Shown one piece after another: positions 4,425-64,000 of a stretch of DNA of 64,000 nt. The position numbers and the translations under genes were made by a program. The notes under the pieces are model-generated. The model did not search any database and was not told the DNA's origin. It was given only the letters and a program-made list of their open reading frames with translations. Source of the stretch: Escherichia phage DT571/2; sequence record NC_047749.1; one strand, written 5' to 3'. Position 1 is the first letter of the stretch. Every line of letters begins with the position of its first letter.

Positions 4425-7214
4425 GTGTTTTCTATCCTCCAAGGTCACGCCGGGTTTTCTCGTGATTTAGCAACAGGTATTTGGCGAGAAATCAAAGCGG
4501 GAGATTATACCTTTGCCAAGCGATTCTCGAAAGAGCATCCAGAAGGTAAACCAGCTTCTATGCCCTTCAAATTTGATGTAATAGAAGAGCACGACCCACA
4601 AAGCCTTGCAGAAATGTTACCACTTATGAGACGTTTAACGTCTGACCCTCATATCGTTGCGGTACGAGGTCGATGTCTTGCACCTAAAAATAATGTGCGA
4701 CGTAAGAAAGATAACTTTAATGTATCTAATCCTAGTAATATTATTGCTATGGACGTGGATGGTATCCTAGATACCGGTGGGTACGACAAATTTAATCTTG
4801 TTGGTATGGCCCGCCACATTATTAAGATGTTGAATAGTATTAGTGAGGATATGTTTCCTCTTGATGCAGGCTTTATAGCTCATGCATCATCTTCGGCTGG
4901 GCTAAAACCAGGTATCCGAATGCACTTAATACTAGAATCTAACGTCAAGGTAACTCAGGGTCAGCTAAAGTTCTTATTTACATCTATCAATGATAGTAGT
5001 AAGCAAAAATTTGGTTTTGATATTGCCGACCTAGCTTATTACTCATCTGTCCAGCTCCACTATTTTGCCGACCCCTTATTTAGCGATGGTATTGTTGATC
5101 CGTTTAAAGCGGAGAGTAAGCCACGTCTGGTGTATGTTAAAGGCTCAAAAGTAAACTTACCTAATAATCTAGTTGACTATGAAACAACTAGAGGAGAGTT
5201 TAAAGAGGAATTCTACTCTTTACTCGATCAAATTAAAGGCAAAAAGATTGCTTCTGATAAAGTAGAAGAAACCATCAGCGAGTTAGAAGAGGCTGATGAT
5301 GGAGTGTACTTGCGTATTATCCCCAAACTATACCATAGAGCATTAGAGGATGGTGTTGATTTTGAATGGCTAGAACGTGAGATTAAACCAGCTTTATCTG
5401 AATATATTGCAACTAAAGATAACAGTCGTAATATTCAAGATTACTTTAATAACGGTCGCAAGCAGGCTCTCAAAGCGTTTGTTAATAATTCTAAACGTGA
5501 GATTCCACCAAATCTGAAAGGTGTTCCACTTAAGAAATTAGAAGTGGATTCTCCACCAGAAGTTCCGTACCTGAAGATTAACATTGTGCCCCCAAAAGGT
5601 CATATAACATTTGTTAAGGCAAGTCTTGGTACGGGTAAAACTACGGCAGTAACTAAATGGCTGGACGCAGGTGTTCTTCCGGGCAACTTTTTAGCAGTTA
5701 CAAATACTAGAGCACTGGTATCTTCAAATGCCAAGAAATTTAGTGCAGGACAATACGATAAGTCTGTAGATATGCTCAACTTTAAACGTGGGGCTATTGA
5801 TCGTATGTCCACAACTATTCACTCTTTGCATAAGTTCAAAAGTTTTATTGGGCAAATAGACACCATTTTTATTGATGAATGTGACGCTGTAATGAATGAC
5901 CTATTATTCGCCCCTGTTGTTAAACAACGTCGCGAGTGTATTCAAGTTCTACGTGACATCCTCATGACAGCTAAGACTGTAATCTTATCCGATGGTGATA
6001 TTAGTGCGGAAACAATTGAAGCATATGGTTCTTTGATTGAGTTCGATAAACCAGTTGCATTTTACAATCACCACCGTAAAATGTTATCAAAGGCTCATGC
6101 TTATGAATTCCCTGATGAATCCAGTATTTGGGTTGCACTTCAGACTTCTCTAGAGATGGGTGAGAAATCTATTCTAGTATCTGATTGTGGTCCTGATGAG
6201 CTGAATGAGAAGGGTATGGCACTACGTCGTAATACTGGTGCATTAGTTAAAGAAATCCATTCAAACTCCACTTCAGATGTGGATATTCGACGTATTCTGG
6301 ATTATACAACTAATGAGCTAATTGATCAACAAATTGATTGCTTATTATGTAGTCCATCCGTAACGAGTGGAGTTGACTTTAACTATTTTGATAACGTATT
6401 TGTTATTACTAGAACCAGTAATCAGGCGCCAAACATGCGTTTTCAAGCAATCAGGCGCGACCGTGGTGCTCAGAATATCTATTATTTTATTGATAAATCC
6501 ACTAGTGGATTCTCTGCGGGTTCTGAACAATATAATATCGATGAAGGTTGGCTGGAGTTAGCACAGCAATTATATGCACGTCGCAGGGAGCTGGAGTCTA
6601 GGAACTATACTAGTACTTTACGTTATTACTTGCTTGATCAGGGTGCAACTATTGATATTTTCAGTGAAAGCTGGGGAACTATTGAAGGTGCTGGTAAAGA
6701 ATACACAGAAGAGCGAATCAAAGCTATTCTACATTCAACTCCTGATTATTGTGCTCCACGTCATGCGGATGCGTATGAGGCTAAACTACTTATTGTTCGC
6801 TATTATCATCTTGAGTCTATTAAAGATGTAACAGTTGAGCATGTTGAACAATATATCAAAGATAAGCCGAATGATCGAGCTGCATTCTTCCATAAGATGC
6901 ACGAGATGTTCTGGGAAGATATTAAGAAGTGTTCAAATGTGACCATTAAACCATTCATAGAAGCTCTGAAAGGTAAGAAGAAAGATTTCTTCCTTAAAAC
7001 AGGTCAGAGTGCTAACCCAAAATATGCTAGAATGTATCTTGGTATGATGGGTATTGGTAAAGATATGAACACGGAGAATATCGTAGACTGGTATAGAACC
7101 TACTGCAAAATCGAATGTATGCCAATCCCTCTCAAATTCATGACTGAAGAAGAGAAGGCTATGGCAGAAGAAGCAATGTCAGAACTAGGTGCTAGAAATG
7201 ACAGTGAAGAATAA
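4425..7214 (+). CDS. 929-aa Walker A/B ATPase-helicase, putative replication initiator/origin-binding-type protein
   Basis: GTG start with SD acaggag 7 nt upstream; Walker A SLGTGKTT and Walker B FIDECD in the C-terminal half; N-terminal half has DVDG (DxD) and GIRMH motifs compatible with a primase-polymerase-like domain. Confidence 0.6.
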   Translation: MFSILQGHAGFSRDLATGIWREIKAGDYTFAKRFSKEHPEGKPASMPFKFDVIEEHDPQSLAEMLPLMRRLTSDPHIVAVRGRCLAPKNNVRRKKDNFNVSNPSNIIAMDVDGILDTGGYDKFNLVGMARHIIKMLNSISEDMFPLDAGFIAHASSSAGLKPGIRMHLILESNVKVTQGQLKFLFTSINDSSKQKFGFDIADLAYYSSVQLHYFADPLFSDGIVDPFKAESKPRLVYVKGSKVNLPNNLVDYETTRGEFKEEFYSLLDQIKGKKIASDKVEETISELEEADDGVYLRIIPKLYHRALEDGVDFEWLEREIKPALSEYIATKDNSRNIQDYFNNGRKQALKAFVNNSKREIPPNLKGVPLKKLEVDSPPEVPYLKINIVPPKGHITFVKASLGTGKTTAVTKWLDAGVLPGNFLAVTNTRALVSSNAKKFSAGQYDKSVDMLNFKRGAIDRMSTTIHSLHKFKSFIGQIDTIFIDECDAVMNDLLFAPVVKQRRECIQVLRDILMTAKTVILSDGDISAETIEAYGSLIEFDKPVAFYNHHRKMLSKAHAYEFPDESSIWVALQTSLEMGEKSILVSDCGPDELNEKGMALRRNTGALVKEIHSNSTSDVDIRRILDYTTNELIDQQIDCLLCSPSVTSGVDFNYFDNVFVITRTSNQAPNMRFQAIRRDRGAQNIYYFIDKSTSGFSAGSEQYNIDEGWLELAQQLYARRRELESRNYTSTLRYYLLDQGATIDIFSESWGTIEGAGKEYTEERIKAILHSTPDYCAPRHADAYEAKLLIVRYYHLESIKDVTVEHVEQYIKDKPNDRAAFFHKMHEMFWEDIKKCSNVTIKPFIEALKGKKKDFFLKTGQSANPKYARMYLGMMGIGKDMNTENIVDWYRTYCKIECMPIPLKFMTEEEKAMAEEAMSELGARNDSEE

Positions 7215-7500: not shown

Positions 7501-8205
7501 ATGGCTGGTTCTCGCAGAAAGAAACATATCCATGAAATCCCGGATGAAGTCTTTAAAAAAGTTATAGAGCATCTGGAGAACGGTGGTACTAAGAAAGCAG
7601 CATGTGAGATGCTCGGCGTATCATCCAATCCGACTATGGAAAGGATGATAGAAGAGTGGCAAGATCGCCAAATTCAAGTTGCCGAGATGAAGAAAAAGAA
7701 ACGTGGTACACTCATTGAAGGCATCGAGTTAGCTAACGTTATTGAACAGTATTTATCCGGTGATTCTTTTGAAGAGATTGCCGATCGTAATTATCGCTCT
7801 GTAGCAATGGTTAAATCTGTTCTGGAACGATATGGTGCTCTACTTCGTTTGAACGATATTGTAGACCCGTTGAATCCACCAATTATTCCTGATGATGCTG
7901 TAGCAGAAGAATTTGAAGTAGGTGAGCTAGTTTGGGTTCCTGGATACCAGTGTATCGGTGAAATCAAAAAAGCAATGGATAACCCTGTTGGTTGTTACCG
8001 TGTATGGCTTCTATCAGAAGGCAAACAACAGAATGTTCATTATATGAATTATGAATTAGCTTCTGTAAAGCATTTAGAAAAGCTAGGGGTTGACGTAAAA
8101 TCTCTGGGGTATAAATGGTCCCGGGAAGAAGTTATCACACTGATTAACGAAGCTGTTAAGGCTGCCTTGAAACTTGATAAAGAAAAAGGAAAACGCCGTG
8201 AGTAA
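7501..8205 (+). CDS. Putative DNA-binding transcription regulator with two HTH motifs
   Basis: HTH-like GTKKAACEMLGVS, and SFEEIADRNYRSVAMVKSVLERYG resembling sigma70 region-4 helices; immediately downstream of a strong promoter. Confidence 0.5.
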   Translation: MAGSRRKKHIHEIPDEVFKKVIEHLENGGTKKAACEMLGVSSNPTMERMIEEWQDRQIQVAEMKKKKRGTLIEGIELANVIEQYLSGDSFEEIADRNYRSVAMVKSVLERYGALLRLNDIVDPLNPPIIPDDAVAEEFEVGELVWVPGYQCIGEIKKAMDNPVGCYRVWLLSEGKQQNVHYMNYELASVKHLEKLGVDVKSLGYKWSREEVITLINEAVKAALKLDKEKGKRRE

Positions 8206-8449
8206 ACTAACTGATTTGCTTAAAGATGGGGAAGTAAAAACACTATATCGTAGAAGCTGGGATAACGATAATAACGGCTTAGTGTTACTAACTTTAGATG
8301 CTGACTCGGATGTAGCTACTCAACATACCTGGGTAGCGGGCAACTATCCATATAGCGAAGTTGTTTCATTAACAGTATGCGAAGCTGTTGCAGACGATTG
8401 GGAGATTGCCAGCATTGATGATATGCTCGCTGTTGGCCTGGTGGAGTAA
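8198..8449 (+). CDS. Hypothetical protein (~84 aa)
   Basis: GTG 8198 with SD aagga 7 nt upstream, in the same frame as track ORF 8174-8449. Confidence 0.4.
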   Translation: MSKLTDLLKDGEVKTLYRRSWDNDNNGLVLLTLDADSDVATQHTWVAGNYPYSEVVSLTVCEAVADDWEIASIDDMLAVGLVE

Positions 8450-8466
8450 CTACTTAAAAATTTCAG

Positions 8467-8495
8467 TTGCTTAATCCTACAATTCTTGATATAAT
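8467..8495 (+). promoter_or_regulatory. T5-type sigma70 promoter
   Basis: ttgctt 8467-8472, 17-bp spacer, tataat 8490-8495. Confidence 0.6.
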
Positions 8496-8552
8496 ATTCT
8501 CATAGTTTGAAAGAACTATTCTGTTTAATTCTTAATTAAGGAAATATAAAAT

Positions 8553-8963
8553 ATGACTACTCCAACTCAGTGGACTGATGAACTGTTCGAAAAAATGTCT
8601 TCCGAATACGTTGCTCGTATGGAGCAATTCCCAGAGGATGAACGTCCGAGTGTTAGCATGGAAATTGTTAGTGAAATTGCCCAGGAAAATGGTGTAACTC
8701 CGAACGGTTTTCGTATGAAGCTGACTAAAGCAGGTTTGTATATTAAGAAAGCTGCTGGCTCTGCTTCTAAATCTAGTGCATCTACTGGAGAAAAAGCTTC
8801 CGGTGGTTCTCGTACCTCCAAAGCCCAGGCTCATGCCGACCTTCGTTCAGCGTTCTCTGATGCTGGCTTAGCACCAGATTTTCTGGATGATGCAATTATC
8901 GACAAACTGACCGGTAAAGCGGCTGCTCATCTGGCAGAAGCAATCCGAGCTATCACTAAGTAA
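8553..8963 (+). CDS. Hypothetical protein (136 aa), Ala/Ser-rich C-terminal half
   Basis: RBS taaggaaatataaaat-ATG; no catalytic motifs. Confidence 0.5.
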   Translation: MTTPTQWTDELFEKMSSEYVARMEQFPEDERPSVSMEIVSEIAQENGVTPNGFRMKLTKAGLYIKKAAGSASKSSASTGEKASGGSRTSKAQAHADLRSAFSDAGLAPDFLDDAIIDKLTGKAAAHLAEAIRAITK

Positions 8964-59852: not shown

Positions 59853-60104
59853 CTATGCTACAGCTTCCAATTTTTCGTTACGTTGAACAACTTTTACAAC
59901 GTCGCCAGATTTAACGCGAACACTAAAAACGGTTTTTCCGTTGTTGCTACGTTCCGTTTCTGCATATACTGCATCAATTACATCGAACGGCATGAGCGCC
60001 GCGCCTTTGATGCGTTCGGCCTTTCCGGTTGCCTCGTCTGTTTTAGTAACGAAAGGGATGAAAACGGATTGACCAATTTTTGGCGCGGTGATAGCGTTTT
60101 TCAT
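59853..60104 (-). CDS. Hypothetical pre-early protein (83 aa)
   Basis: Shares the ggagtttatacc-ATG initiation region with the A2-like gene. Confidence 0.45.
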   Translation of the reverse strand: MKNAITAPKIGQSVFIPFVTKTDEATGKAERIKGAALMPFDVIDAVYAETERSNNGKTVFSVRVKSGDVVKVVQRNEKLEAVA

Positions 60105-60338
60105 GGTATAAACTCCAGTTATTTGATGGATTGTTCCGCATTACCTGCTAAAAAATAATAACAGGTAATAAGAAAAAATCCGCTCACCGTTAAAATCAAT
60201 TTAAGGAACTCCACACAGGCCGCTATATCCCGTTAGGGGGCGGGGCACATTATGGCAAGTACCGGCCGTCAAATTTTACCAAGTTATCGCTCTTGTTGAA
60301 TCGGGTACATTTTAAAGCCTATCGGCTAGGGCGTCAAA

Positions 60339-60509
60339 TTATTTTTCGTTTTCTTTTAAATTAGAATTCTCCCAACTGAATTGCATCTCGCAAAATATTT
60401 TCCCATCTTTATGATGGTAAGCGATCTCGCTCCCGTGGTTAGCACAGAAAGCGATCACTGCCTCAGCTTGTTCTACCGTGATATTGTTGGCCGTTTCTTT
60501 GATTTTCAT
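60339..60509 (-). CDS. Small hypothetical protein (56 aa, not in the ORF track)
   Basis: Strong SD aaggaga 7 nt upstream of ATG at 60509; translates to MKIKETANNITVEQAEAVIAF... Confidence 0.4.
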   Translation of the reverse strand: MKIKETANNITVEQAEAVIAFCANHGSEIAYHHKDGKIFCEMQFSWENSNLKENEK

Positions 60510-61132
60510 ATCGTCGTCTCCTTATAAGGTTAATAAGTTTGCCGCCGATGGGCTTTAAAATGCACCTGATTTTTAAAGAGCGCGGCGGTAAACTTTCCGC
60601 CGTGTAGTTCGTCATTGCCGCCCTACGAGATAAATAATAGGGAATACCCAAAAAAGGTGCAACCTTAATTTTGTAAAGAAATGTAAAGAAAGCAAATACC
60701 CGCACCGCGTCCGGCGATCGCCCAAGTTTAAAGGAAACAGGCGCGCGGATACCATAAAACCGAGCTGATTGGCAAGTAATTTTTTCATTTTTATTTGCCT
60801 TGCCCTACTTGACAAAACTTAAAAAGCTCGTGGTGACGATAAACGGGCTATCCCTTTATGATGGGATACCTGAAAAATTTACCGCGTTGTAGGACGTTTT
60901 AGGCCGCTTATCTTCGATTTAACAAATATTTAACAAAAGCAAAATTGAAAAATAGTTTGAGAAGGTATTGACTTTTTAAAATCAAGACTAAACGAGTTAT
61001 TTTAAAAAATTAATTAATTGACTTTTATTTGTTGTTGTGTAGTAGAAAGATAGCAGACTAATAATTGCTAGAATGATAATCATGCTGGTGATTGTAACAG
61101 ACTGAACTATTAGCAGACTACTGATCCCGGAA

Positions 61133-61176
61133 AATCTCATTAGCCAACTAACTATCTCATTAGCCAACTAACTATT
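61133..61176. repeat. Direct repeat 2 x ~21 bp (ctcattagccaactaactat)
   Basis: Two adjacent copies. Confidence 0.8.
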
Positions 61177-61185
61177 TCATAAGTT

Positions 61186-61365
61186 ATAATAACTATAAAA
61201 ATAATCACCGTTAAAATAATCACTATAAAAATAATCACCATTAAAATAATAACTATAGAAATAATCACCATTATAATAATCACCATTAAAATAATCACTA
61301 TAAAAATAATCACCATTAAAATAATCACTATAAAAATAATCACCATTATTATAATCACTATAAGA
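61186..61365. repeat. Tandem array, ~12 copies of a 15-bp AT-rich unit (ATAATCAC[C/T][A/G]TTAAA / ATAATCACTATAAAA)
   Basis: Contiguous 15-bp periodicity read directly from the sequence. Confidence 0.9.
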
Positions 61366-61401
61366 AACTATCGGCTTAAGTGAGAACCACTATCATTTAA
61401 G

Positions 61402-61510
61402 TTATCCACAACGTTATCCACAGCACAAAATGATTTGACACGATAGGCGGCGATATAAAGATTTATCCACAGACTTATCCACAGGTTATCCTACTGTATA
61501 TTTATCCAGG
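61402..61510. promoter_or_regulatory. DnaA-box cluster (4 perfect TTATCCACA plus 2 variants)
   Basis: TTATCCACA at 61402, 61414, 61463, 61475; variants ttatcctac 61486 and ttatccagg 61502. Confidence 0.8.
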
Positions 61511-61880
61511 GTAAAAAGATAGTGTTTACAACTGCAATCAATTTTGAGCGGCCTAAAACGCTTTCTAACGAGCTGATCGCTGTAGGGTAATATTAAAGTA
61601 AAGCCTTTACCCGTCGGCCTAGAGGCTTCGCCGTGTTTTGCTCTTTACTGCACCGCTGCGCGGTTAGCATAAAACTAGGTGTTAGGCAAGAAAAATAAAA
61701 AGTAAAGTAAACGTTGCCCCTAGAAAGAAAATAATTTTACCGGTAACATCGAAAGCGGGTAATAATTAACCTAATGTAAAGTTTTGTAAGGCCCGCCATA
61801 ATCAGCGGCCTTTTTTGTTATACTGCCCTTACACCGTTTAAGGACGGTTAAAAATTTCCCGAAAAATTTGGAGGCTTAAA

Positions 61881-62060
61881 ATGGTTATTTTTCGATCTAT
61901 TCTGGCGGGTATCTTGGGCGCTATTTTAACTCTATTTGCTACCGCTTACGGTATTCAAGATTCTTATTGCGGTTTAGTAAATACTAAACCTATGGTTATT
62001 ATTGGCGCGGGTATCGCTGTTTTTTCTTATTTGCTGGGCTGCATGAATAAAGGAGAATAA
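61881..62060 (+). CDS. Small membrane protein (59 aa)
   Basis: SD ggagg 6 nt upstream of ATG; two hydrophobic helices. Confidence 0.45.
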   Translation: MVIFRSILAGILGAILTLFATAYGIQDSYCGLVNTKPMVIIGAGIAVFSYLLGCMNKGE

Positions 62061-62062
62061 AA

Positions 62063-62275
62063 ATGATCCGCAACGTTTCTCTTGCTCGTTCCAAAGGTTT
62101 TAAGCTGGTGGATGTAAACACGTTCGAGCGTCCTGGTTGTAAAATCGAATATATAGCGCGGAATAAAAACGCTTTCCGCGTTACAGAAAAGAGATTCGAT
62201 AAACGCGGCAACGTGATAGCTGAAACGGTTAAATATTTTGCCACCTTTTACGCGGCCTTTCGTGGGGTATTATGA
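62063..62275 (+). CDS. Hypothetical protein (70 aa)
   Basis: SD aaggaga; part of a tightly packed small-gene operon. Confidence 0.45.
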   Translation: MIRNVSLARSKGFKLVDVNTFERPGCKIEYIARNKNAFRVTEKRFDKRGNVIAETVKYFATFYAAFRGVL

Positions 62276-62397
62276 AGAGCGTTGTTATTGTTATCCTTGC
62301 AATGGTTGGCGGTTTTACCACCACCTTGTTTAGAAATGATCCTCTTTTGCTAGGGATCTTTATGCTTTTATCTGGTTATCTGATCGGGAGGTTATAA
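62272..62397 (+). CDS. Small membrane protein (41 aa)
   Basis: ATGA overlap with the previous ORF; hydrophobic. Confidence 0.35.
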   Translation: MKSVVIVILAMVGGFTTTLFRNDPLLLGIFMLLSGYLIGRL

Positions 62398-62398
62398 A

Positions 62399-62743
62399 AT
62401 GGTGATTTATGAAGGTGATCGCCTTGTTGCTGATTGCCGTCCGGCATTGTTAGCAAACTACTTAAACCAGCTTTCGCCAGTATATAAAGGCGTTATAAAT
62501 ATTTATGAAGGCGGGGCGCATTATAAGATTAATGCGGTCGTTGCCCGTGAACTAGCGTTTCAATTTTTAACCTTTTCATCTTGCAATATTCAGGTCATGG
62601 GTGAGGCGTTAATTGCAGAAAATGAAGATGATTTTATTAATATCTTTCGCAAGATATGCACCGAGCGCCTGATAATGAAAGGGGCATATATTCAATCCAC
62701 TGCGGATAGTATTGAAACGGCTTTTCGAAAGGTGGCACAATGA
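62399..62743 (+). CDS. Hypothetical protein (114 aa)
   Basis: SD gggagg 7 nt upstream. Confidence 0.45.
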   Translation: MVIYEGDRLVADCRPALLANYLNQLSPVYKGVINIYEGGAHYKINAVVARELAFQFLTFSSCNIQVMGEALIAENEDDFINIFRKICTERLIMKGAYIQSTADSIETAFRKVAQ

Positions 62744-62848
62744 AGCTATATATTTTCGCGGGTAATGTTGAGGCTGCAAATGATTCCGCTGGTGGCGATA
62801 GCGTTCGCCATTATTGGCAAAATTATATTTACTAGGCGTAATGATCAC

Positions 62849-62903
62849 GGGGCACAACTATCAGGGAGTGCCCCTGATTCTCAAATGAGAATCATTCTCA
62901 TTT
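62849..62903. repeat. Hairpin (ggggcac/gtgcccc) followed by a perfect 21-bp palindrome aaatgagaatcattctcattt
   Basis: Palindrome at 62883-62903 is related to the 23-bp array units downstream. Confidence 0.8.
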
Positions 62904-63136
62904 GACCGCGCCCGCGATGGTTAGCACACTAATGATTAGGGTGTTACGTGTCGCCTTGTGTGATCGTTAGCGGGCTAACTAATTTTCAAGCCTCCTCCAG
63001 ATTTGCCCTTGTTTTAGTATCCCCATCAAAATAAAACGCGTTAGAAAGCGATTCAGGGCGTTTTAGGCCTATATTAGAATTATTCACTGCGTAGGAATAC
63101 TGTATATTTATACAGTAGAATAACCTGGGGATAAGT

Positions 63137-63208
63137 CGGTGGATAACGCTTCAAAATGGCTAGAATTTTGTCAAGGCAAATCGTGCTGTTGATAAGTCTG
63201 TGGATAAC
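63137..63208. promoter_or_regulatory. Second DnaA-box group, opposite orientation (tgtggataa)
   Basis: gtggataac 63139-63147 (8/9) and perfect tgtggataa 63200-63208. Confidence 0.65.
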
Positions 63209-63240
63209 TTAAATAACAGTGTTTCTCACTTCCGTTTTTA

Positions 63241-63505
63241 AATGCGAATCATTATCATTTGCATTCCACTTCTTAAATGAGAATCATTTCACTTCTTGAA
63301 TAGTTCTCATTCCCTTTCTTAAATGAGAATCATTTCACTTCTTGAATAGTTCTCATTTCACTTCTTGAATAGTTCTCATTCCACTTCTTAAATGAGAATC
63401 ATTCCACTTCTTAAATGAGAATCATTCCACCTCTTAAATGAGAATGATTATCATTCGCATTCCACTTCTTAAATGCGAATGATAATCATTCTCATTCGCA
63501 TTCCG
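63241..63505. repeat. Tandem array of ~9 copies of a 23-bp unit in two variants, flanked by palindromic aatg(c/a)gaat..attcgcatt elements
   Basis: Variants CCACTTCTTAAATGAGAATCATT and TCACTTCTTGAATAGTTCTCATT. Confidence 0.9.
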
Positions 63506-63509
63506 GCGA

Positions 63510-63755
63510 GCAGGGCAATTGCCCTGCGCTTATGTGCAAATCCGACAATTGCTCCAAGGGTTACGCGAGGGCATGTATGTGCAAATCCGACCCATTTTTT
63601 GGTAGTGTGCAAATCCGACCCCAAAAATTTATAAATTCGTGAGAGTGACAAATCTGTCTCCCAAAAACTCCAGCAATCACGAACTGCGTTCGAATCCTGT
63701 GGGGTATGTGCAAATCCGACACGGTTTTTCTAGGATTAAGATGTGCGAATCCGAT
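63510..63755. repeat. 18-bp palindrome gcagggcaattgccctgc plus 5 dispersed copies of the 14-mer TGTGCAAATCCGAC
   Basis: 14-mer at 63533, 63578, 63606, 63707 and variant tgtgcgaatccgat at 63742. Confidence 0.85.
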
Positions 63756-64000
63756 GAAATTTTTGTGACTTCGATGAGAGGGTGTGTGATTGTATAGGTT
63801 TGAGGAGAAGATGAGAGAGCGAGAAAAATTTTGGGGCTAGAAGTGTATGGGCGCAGGATTGGTGCGGAGCACCTGATTTGCGGGGGTTTTGGGGGATAGT
63901 GGAGATAATTTGGGGAAATTTGAGATAGGTGCAGAAAAAGTAAAATTTTATTAGCTAAAGGGGGCAATATAGCTTGACAATTGAAAATTCTTGTGGCTCT

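Follow-up and report, generated by a model that had tools for sequence, protein, structure and literature searches.

We analysed a 64,000-nucleotide (nt) stretch of Escherichia phage DT571/2 (NC_047749.1; hereafter the window) and studied five small open reading frames (ORFs) near its right end, designated ORF1 to ORF5. We conclude, with a probability of about 0.85, that they form a rightward pre-early host-takeover operon of the T5-like phage terminal repeat. An operon of this kind is already known, and all five genes are annotated in relatives. The 2.8-kb stretch around the ORFs is 99.9% identical to the record of phage DT57C (Tequintavirus, a close T5 relative). Between 61000 and 63800 the two sequences differ only at 62893, which lies within the palindrome directly 3' of ORF5 (C in the window, G in the DT57C record), and at 63084. 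The window ends on the same base as the DT57C record, at the right genome end, and the locus copy examined here therefore belongs to the right terminal repeat. The five ORFs lie inside the annotated right "terminal repeat region" of the DT57C record, and an identical left-end copy is found at record positions 5966-6920. In T5-like phages, the left genome end is the first-step-transfer (FST) DNA with the pre-early genes (bioRxiv 10.1101/866236). An earlier annotation, made from the letters of the window without database searches (the sequence-only reading), had placed the ORFs in a first-injected segment, which holds for the left copy but not for the right repeat in the window. The location is that of the T5 pre-early class, in the terminal repeat and between two repeat arms with DnaA boxes.

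The same reading had described five small plus-strand ORFs with tight junctions, and we recovered each of them with the coordinates and length it gave (Table 1). ORF1 and ORF2 are joined by TAA-aa-ATG and ORF3 and ORF4 by TAA-a-ATG, and ATGA overlaps connect ORF2 to ORF3 and ORF4 to ORF5. The duplex energies with the anti-Shine-Dalgarno (anti-SD) sequence were -9.3, -8.7, -5.4, -11.0 and -7.2 kcal/mol for ORF1 to ORF5, corresponding to the top 0.7%, 1.2%, 11%, 0.3% and 2.2% of the 991 plus-strand ATGs in the window. The SD sequences, previously called good throughout, are thus strong for ORF1, ORF2, ORF4 and ORF5 and just moderate for ORF3. Of the five, ORF1, ORF2 and ORF4 alone are annotated in the DT57C record; the remark that the fifth ORF is missing from the feature list applies to that record as well, where ORF3 is also unannotated. 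Other statements did not survive. Hydrophobic products are limited to ORF1 and ORF3, not three of the peptides, and ORF5 is acidic and hydrophilic, with a grand average of hydropathy (GRAVY) of -0.38. The operon has a GC content of 40.5% compared to 40.0% for the window, which is the 68th percentile of 955-nt windows and not a noticeable elevation. The products had been said to lack any recognisable motif, but all five match PHROG families (phrog_5607, phrog_4227, phrog_19184, phrog_4379 and phrog_22819 for ORF1 to ORF5), and homologs of ORF4 carry Pfam PF26847. Scans of the five peptides against NCBIfam and a Pfam copy without PF26847 gave nothing significant.

Table 1. Features of the five-ORF locus and its surroundings (window coordinates).
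Feature	Position	Strand	Description
ORF1	61881-62060	+	59 amino acids (aa), ATG start
ORF2	62063-62275	+	70 aa, ATG start
ORF3	62272-62397	+	41 aa, ATG start, ATGA overlap with ORF2
ORF4	62399-62743	+	114 aa, ATG start
ORF5	62740-62835	+	31 aa, ATG start, ATGA overlap with ORF4
Intrinsic-terminator-like hairpin	61788-61816	+	AAGGCCCGCC-ataatca-GCGGCCTT, then a T run
Extended -10 promoter-like element	61816-61824	+	TGTTATACT, on the T tail of the terminator
Hairpin in the 5' untranslated region (5'UTR)	61833-61848	+	ACCGT-ttaagg-ACGGT, at the predicted mRNA 5' end
Two strong hairpins/palindromes	62843-62905	+	Directly 3' of ORF5; -33.5 kcal/mol, z = -6.0, no U tract
Left arm of the inverted repeat (Davison's IRC-spacer-IRD)	61378-61570		Context, not part of the operon
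Right arm (IRD'-spacer-IRC')	63039-63231		Injection-stop-signal region starts here; context, outside the operon
ORF5alt (rejected)	62765-62905	+	46 aa, hydrophobic N-terminus, T5.016-type frame

Comparison with T5 (NC_005859 / AY543070) showed orthologs of T5.013, T5.014, T5.015 and a 31-aa T5 ORF at 98%, 93%, 89% and 90% amino acid identity, respectively. ORF1 is the ortholog of T5.013 (58/59 identical; phrog_5607, E = 1.1e-30), ORF2 that of T5.014 (65/70; phrog_4227, E = 9.3e-49) and ORF4 that of T5.015 (102/114, equal length; phrog_4379, E = 1.8e-62 over residues 1-114). The two phages agree in gene order, strand and junction types, in the terminator and promoter found upstream, and in placing the genes between the inverted-repeat arms. 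However, hegG, T5.011 and T5.012 are absent from DT57C, little is left of T5.016 and T5.017, an additional gene of 41 aa separates 014 from 015, and ORF1 is fused to the ribosome-binding site (RBS) of 012. T5.011 was lost at a short TTACC repeat, where the 011 promoter region now meets the 011 3' end (window 61735-61745). For T5.012, the missing segment runs precisely from the ATGGTT at the start of 012 to the ATGGTT at the start of 013 (window 61875-61886), so ORF1 has inherited the leader/5'UTR and RBS of 012; the 110 nt 5' of ORF1 are homologous to the region 5' of T5.012. Gostya9 also lacks 012 (upstream of its position 2111), but with a different junction, indicating that 012 was lost twice, independently. 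The operon is thus a naturally shortened form of T5 012-017. The five genes are all annotated, in the same order, in BF23 (BF23_00013-00017), HdH2 (HdH2rev_00012-00016), Gostya9 (T59_00007-00011) and Bas32 (bas32_0183-0177). In most relatives, unlike in the window, 011 and 012 are still present upstream and one to three further small genes follow downstream.

We compared 38 related loci, including T5, BF23, HdH2, Gostya9 and 31 IMG/VR loci retrieved via ORF4. Homologs of ORF2 and ORF4 were present in all 38, and those of ORF1, ORF3 and ORF5 in 36, 23 and 17, respectively. The ratios of nonsynonymous to synonymous divergence (dN/dS), calculated pairwise between each relative and the window by the Nei-Gojobori method (NG86), were 0.03-0.57 for ORF1, 0.04-0.23 for ORF2, 0.10-0.68 for ORF3, 0.05-0.16 for ORF4 and 0.14-0.40 for ORF5, at dS values mostly of 0.2-0.9 and up to 2.1. 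Values well below 1 at such substantial dS indicate conservation at the protein level. On this comparative evidence, all five ORFs are under purifying selection and are real genes, including the 41-aa and 31-aa microproteins missing from the DT57C record. The sequence-only reading had proposed that conservation of the ORFs, rather than of the DNA, be checked among relatives; the divergence is biased to synonymous sites, and all five ORFs are found intact in relatives.

ORF4 is, by homology, a gene for an Ung-dependent abasic-site nickase; Ung binding, nicking and a toxicity confined to ung+ cells are known for the T5 protein. Mahata et al. (2021) showed that T5.015 inhibits growth, binds Ung and nicks the abasic sites that Ung makes, with arrest of replication and division, and that a K85A/K94A/K111A mutant is non-toxic (PMC8201957). 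All three lysines are present in both ORF4 and T5.015. Every database homolog of ORF4 is assigned to PF26847 and is named 'DNA-(apurinic or apyrimidinic site) endonuclease' in UniRef. In the DT57C record, ORF4 is labelled just "hypothetical protein". The nickase name, reading 'endonuclease nicking abasic sites generated by host uracil glycosylase Ung', stands instead on the 70-aa T5.014 family in RefSeq (T5 YP_006842.1, DT57C YP_009149791.1 and many others) and in PHROGs v4 (phrog_4227), that is, on window 62063-62275 as opposed to 62399-62743 and on T5 8086-8298 as opposed to 8300-8644. ORF2/T5.014 can be rejected as the nickase, as 70 aa are too few to contain K85, K94 and K111, and T5.014 was non-toxic in both published screens. 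The lysine positions show that the enzyme is the 114-aa T5.015, and the label on the T5.014 family is an off-by-one error that has spread to many phage records. UniRef has the name correctly on the 114-aa family. The true homolog of the Ung-dependent nickase gene in DT57C is thereby identified as ORF4.

The ORF2 product is basic (isoelectric point of 10.3) and soluble, with a predicted five-strand antiparallel sheet and two short helices. Both the ORF2 and ORF4 families were found only in T5-like phages, with 8 and 17 clusters at 90% identity, respectively, and sequence searches of the PDB with either protein gave no match. The ORF4 model (predicted local distance difference test score, pLDDT, of 65) consists of three beta-hairpin-plus-helix units, and its low-confidence C-terminus holds K94 and K111; comparison of this model with solved folds gave no match.

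ORF1 has hydrophobic windows at residues 1-25 and 37-55, as expected for the two-transmembrane (2-TM) T5.013 family. Peptides of the T5.013 type occur in two forms, one of 59-60 aa with a GIQDSYCGLVNTKPM inter-helix loop and one of 48-49 aa without the loop, and the helices are nearly invariant across both. Many relatives have the short-loop form, unlike the window. We also considered ORF1 as a holin of Pfam PF23987 (Phage_holin_10), but the match covered 16 residues only and had an E value of 0.088 and a score of 13.3 bits versus a cutoff of 27. A paralogous relationship between ORF1 and ORF3 as 2-TM peptides was rejected as well (hhalign probability of 4.7%).

The operon is bracketed by an inverted repeat of 132 nt (61378-61509 versus 63100-63231; 77% complementary), and further matching pieces extend it to 61570 and 63039 (about 190 nt). 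The left arm has consensus DnaA boxes TTATCCACA at 61402, 61414, 61463 and 61475, arranged as two pairs with 3-nt spacing each, and the right arm has one consensus box and variant, DnaA-like boxes. The repeats and DnaA boxes previously noticed on both flanks are thus confirmed: the arms hold DnaA boxes in pairs, with repeat arrays beyond them. Davison described an IRC-spacer-IRD / IRD'-spacer-IRC' structure with eight DnaA-type boxes in 25 T5-like phages including DT57C (bioRxiv 10.1101/866236). The inverted repeat in the window has the same arrangement, with eight DnaA-type boxes. The arms are 1590 nt apart here compared to about 3.2 kb in T5; this distance is highly variable among relatives (bioRxiv 10.1101/866236).

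Transcription of the operon would begin just downstream of a terminator. The hairpin at 61788-61816 is homologous to a terminator that the T5 record places after T5.011 and that BF23 and HdH2 have annotated as well. Among relatives its pairing is kept, and its stem and loop sequences vary. The extended -10 element on its T tail reads TGTTATAAT in 25 of 26 distinct aligned relative sequences and TGCTATAAT in the remaining one, and the BF23 record has a predicted pre-early promoter at the homologous place. We infer a transcript start at about 61831. At the predicted 5' end, relatives have either the ACCGT...ACGGT hairpin or an alternative hairpin, CACC-aaaac-GGTG. The occupation of the same site by two different hairpins suggests that the structure, rather than the sequence, is selected, and the hairpin may possibly play a role in mRNA stability. 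The operon probably ends at the two hairpins at 62843-62905, where the repeat/palindrome region begins. An Rfam scan of 60000-64000 gave sub-threshold chance matches in palindromes only.

Evidence for expression and function comes from relatives. In RNA sequencing of Bas33 at 20 min after infection, bas33_0171, 0172, 0174 and 0175 had about 325-594 expression units (PMC13250531 Dataset S1). These genes are the homologs of ORF1, ORF2 and ORF4 and a small gene after the 015 homolog. In Bas33 infections arrested once first-step transfer is complete, the pre-early genes continue to be transcribed (PMC13250531). Of the genes T5.002-T5.017, which Mahata et al. cloned, 008, 011 and 015 proved toxic (PMC8201957). 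Annor et al. found 013 and 015 toxic among others, but not 014, 016 and 017, and expression of T5.013 in E. coli yielded lysed, DNA-free ghosts; a T5 deletion of hegG to 017, which keeps only A1, A2, hdi and 009, was viable and formed smaller plaques (bioRxiv 10.64898/2026.04.02.716235). The host-takeover function suggested by the sequence-only reading is thus borne out through orthologs, namely by the T5.015 nickase, the lytic effect of T5.013 in one of the two screens and the Bas33 transcription.

In the mechanism that we propose, the left repeat copy would enter the cell and host sigma-70 RNA polymerase would start at the extended -10 promoter on the T tail of the upstream terminator. One short mRNA would be made, and we infer that its five ORFs are translationally coupled, through SD sequences inside the preceding ORF and the ATGA or TAAnATG junctions. 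The predicted products are a 2-TM peptide of the T5.013 type, whose expression damaged the cell envelope in one of the T5 screens; a small basic beta-sheet protein of the T5.014 type; a 41-aa 2-TM hairpin microprotein; a nickase of the T5.015 type, which in T5 binds Ung and cuts Ung-made abasic sites in host DNA containing deoxyuridine monophosphate (dUMP); and a 31-aa acidic microprotein. Together they may act as accessory host-takeover factors that are useful, dispensable in the laboratory, and gained or lost as small cassettes. Other virulent coliphages have comparable early host-takeover operons; the class I genes 0.3-0.7 of phage T7, for example, form a cluster of tiny, dense genes that are individually dispensable, often toxic and expressed first by the host RNA polymerase. 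The likeness is in organisation, with no sequence relationship, and the cluster described here is tied to two-step injection and the terminal repeat.

Several observations weigh against the assignment as a pre-early host-takeover operon. The copy in the window is the right repeat, the last to enter the cell, and the transcription evidence is from the relative Bas33, not DT57C. The promoter in the window deviates from the family consensus at one position (TATACT) and lacks a good -35 element, and a generic scan for sigma-70 promoters and terminators did not pick up the extended -10 element or anything else above chance level. T5.013 was not toxic in the screen of Mahata et al. (PMC8201957), and fold searches yielded nothing decisive toward the roles of ORF2, ORF3 and ORF5. 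The ORF3 homolog bas33_0173 had 1.6 units in the Bas33 table as opposed to about 325-594 for its neighbours; we suspect a read-counting artefact of a 126-nt feature that overlaps its neighbours. As a discovery, the operon carries little weight, being orthologous to well-described T5 pre-early genes. As a naturally minimal right-arm pre-early operon, it helps to narrow down which pre-early genes do what.

Anti-defence factors could be included among the products of ORF2/T5.014, ORF3 and ORF5, conferring the insensitivity of Tequintavirus to restriction, CRISPR or RecBCD or shielding phage DNA from A1 and the 015 nickase. Such a factor is expected among the FST genes that have no assigned role (PMC10644984), the genes can be dispensed with on laboratory strains, which is usual for accessory counter-defence genes, and 014 and 015 occur together in 38/38 loci. 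On the other hand, homologs of 013, 014, 015 and ORF5 are also present in Sepoy and atrejo, genomes of Epseptimavirus, which is sensitive to restriction-modification (PMC10644984), and at least these four therefore do not explain the restriction insensitivity of Tequintavirus. T5 is restriction-insensitive yet lacks ORF3, which is present in many Salmonella T5-like phages. An anti-defence role of the operon is thus somewhat disfavoured, and we regard the presence of such factors among these three products as unlikely. There is a slight chance that a product of the ORF2, ORF3 or ORF5 type protects the incoming phage DNA, either against host nucleases or, for instance as an inhibitor or immunity partner, against the A1 and 015 activities of the phage itself. 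If so, the minimal right-arm operon of DT57C would be a good system in which to find that function.

The product of ORF3 is a membrane hairpin microprotein with two hydrophobic segments around RNDP, and it matches phrog_19184 over residues 1-41 with E = 4.9e-23. Full-length matches were found in 158 phage records at 100% coverage, with identity down to 44%, and an alignment of 21 sequences showed an invariant skeleton of G13-G14-F15, F20, D23, L27-G28 and G35-Y36-L37-x-G39-R40. Many relatives have a 46-47 aa form. The gene is annotated in BF23 (BF23_00015), HdH2, Gostya9, Bas32 and Bas33. T5 has no counterpart, as a single nucleotide separates the end of T5.014 (8298) from the start of T5.015 (8300). 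The edges of the ORF3 cassette are an imperfect direct repeat (cgtggggtattatga / cgggaggttataaa), and T5 has the state expected after a deletion between these repeats.

ORF5 encodes an acidic soluble microprotein that matches phrog_22819 over residues 1-31 (E = 3.2e-23) and 163 phage records. It corresponds to the 31-aa T5 ORF at 8641-8736 (28/31 identical), which is the 'ORF017' of T5 in the HdH2 and Gostya9 records, and also to BF23_00017 and bas32_0177. An exhaustive phmmer search found one other real cluster at 50% identity (32 aa) among 1.84 billion representatives, indicating that ORF5 has no distant relatives. In Sepoy, Bas32 and atrejo, where another gene precedes it, ORF5 remains 31-32 aa long, and it still begins with an ATGA-type overlap and has an SD of its own. 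In close relatives, the ratio of nonsynonymous to synonymous differences per site (pN/pS) was 0.26 in the ORF5 frame versus 1.76 in the overlapping frame; with Sepoy, Bas32 and atrejo (25-28 differences per 93 nt), it was 0.23-0.38 versus 1.05-1.69.

ORF3 and ORF5 might alternatively be untranslated, with their frames kept by constraints on the DNA or RNA such as arm spacing, mRNA structure or coupling spacers. Both are very short, the SD of ORF3 is moderate, its homolog is nearly without assigned reads in the Bas33 table, and the DNA of ORF5 is unusually conserved, with 77/96 columns invariant in the close set. However, divergence is biased to synonymous sites in both (dN/dS of 0.10-0.45 among close relatives for ORF3 and 0.14-0.40 for ORF5), and the ORF3 motif GGF..F..D..LG......GYL.GR is kept at 46% identity. 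The frame, length and ATGA junction of ORF5 are kept in the other gene neighbourhood at 61-68% identity, and the other frames there have stops or a pN/pS above 1. The inter-arm distance, moreover, is highly variable among relatives. We consider it quite improbable that either ORF is untranslated, and favour two translated microproteins.

The proposal that the true fifth gene is the 46-aa hydrophobic ORF5alt, a truncated T5.016, is very improbable: although the T5 reference annotation starts T5.016 in its frame, Gostya9 annotates both ORF5 and an ORF of the 46-aa type, and its hydrophobic N-terminus would suit the earlier count of three membrane peptides, it has no SD (-1.1 kcal/mol), its frame shows a pN/pS of 1.05-1.76, its length and C-terminus are different in every relative, its second half reads through the two palindromic hairpins (-33.5 kcal/mol), and the in-frame ATG of T5.016 at 8744, just 3' of the ORF5 stop, agrees with the BF23 and HdH2 gene models. 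The pN/pS values, SD, variable C-terminus and palindromes led us to accept ORF5 and reject ORF5alt. The T5.016 annotation (8681-8938) overlaps, in a different frame, the homolog of ORF5, and its start has probably been set too early; the real start is likely the ATG at 8744, which follows the ORF5 stop by 7 nt.

The first ~21 residues of ORF5 (MKLYIFAGNVEAANDSAGGD, window 62740-62805) are similar to the N-terminal residues of a 97-aa protein found in Rogunavirus (T1-like) phages, MKIYVFTGNLLAANDSEGGD (phrog_11452, E = 1.2e-4; AHP42 801-1094), the gene of which also starts with an ATGA overlap. This resemblance is suggestive, but was not significant in the exhaustive library-wide search. On the minus strand at 61152-61358, DT57C has a coding sequence (CDS) annotated as 'repeat completion protein' (record 5237-5431), which lies wholly within an AT-rich tandem array. 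The array units resemble ataatcaccattaaa, and the translation begins MIIIMVIIFIVIIL. Given its position within the tandem array and its translation, this CDS is almost certainly a spurious ORF made by the repeats.

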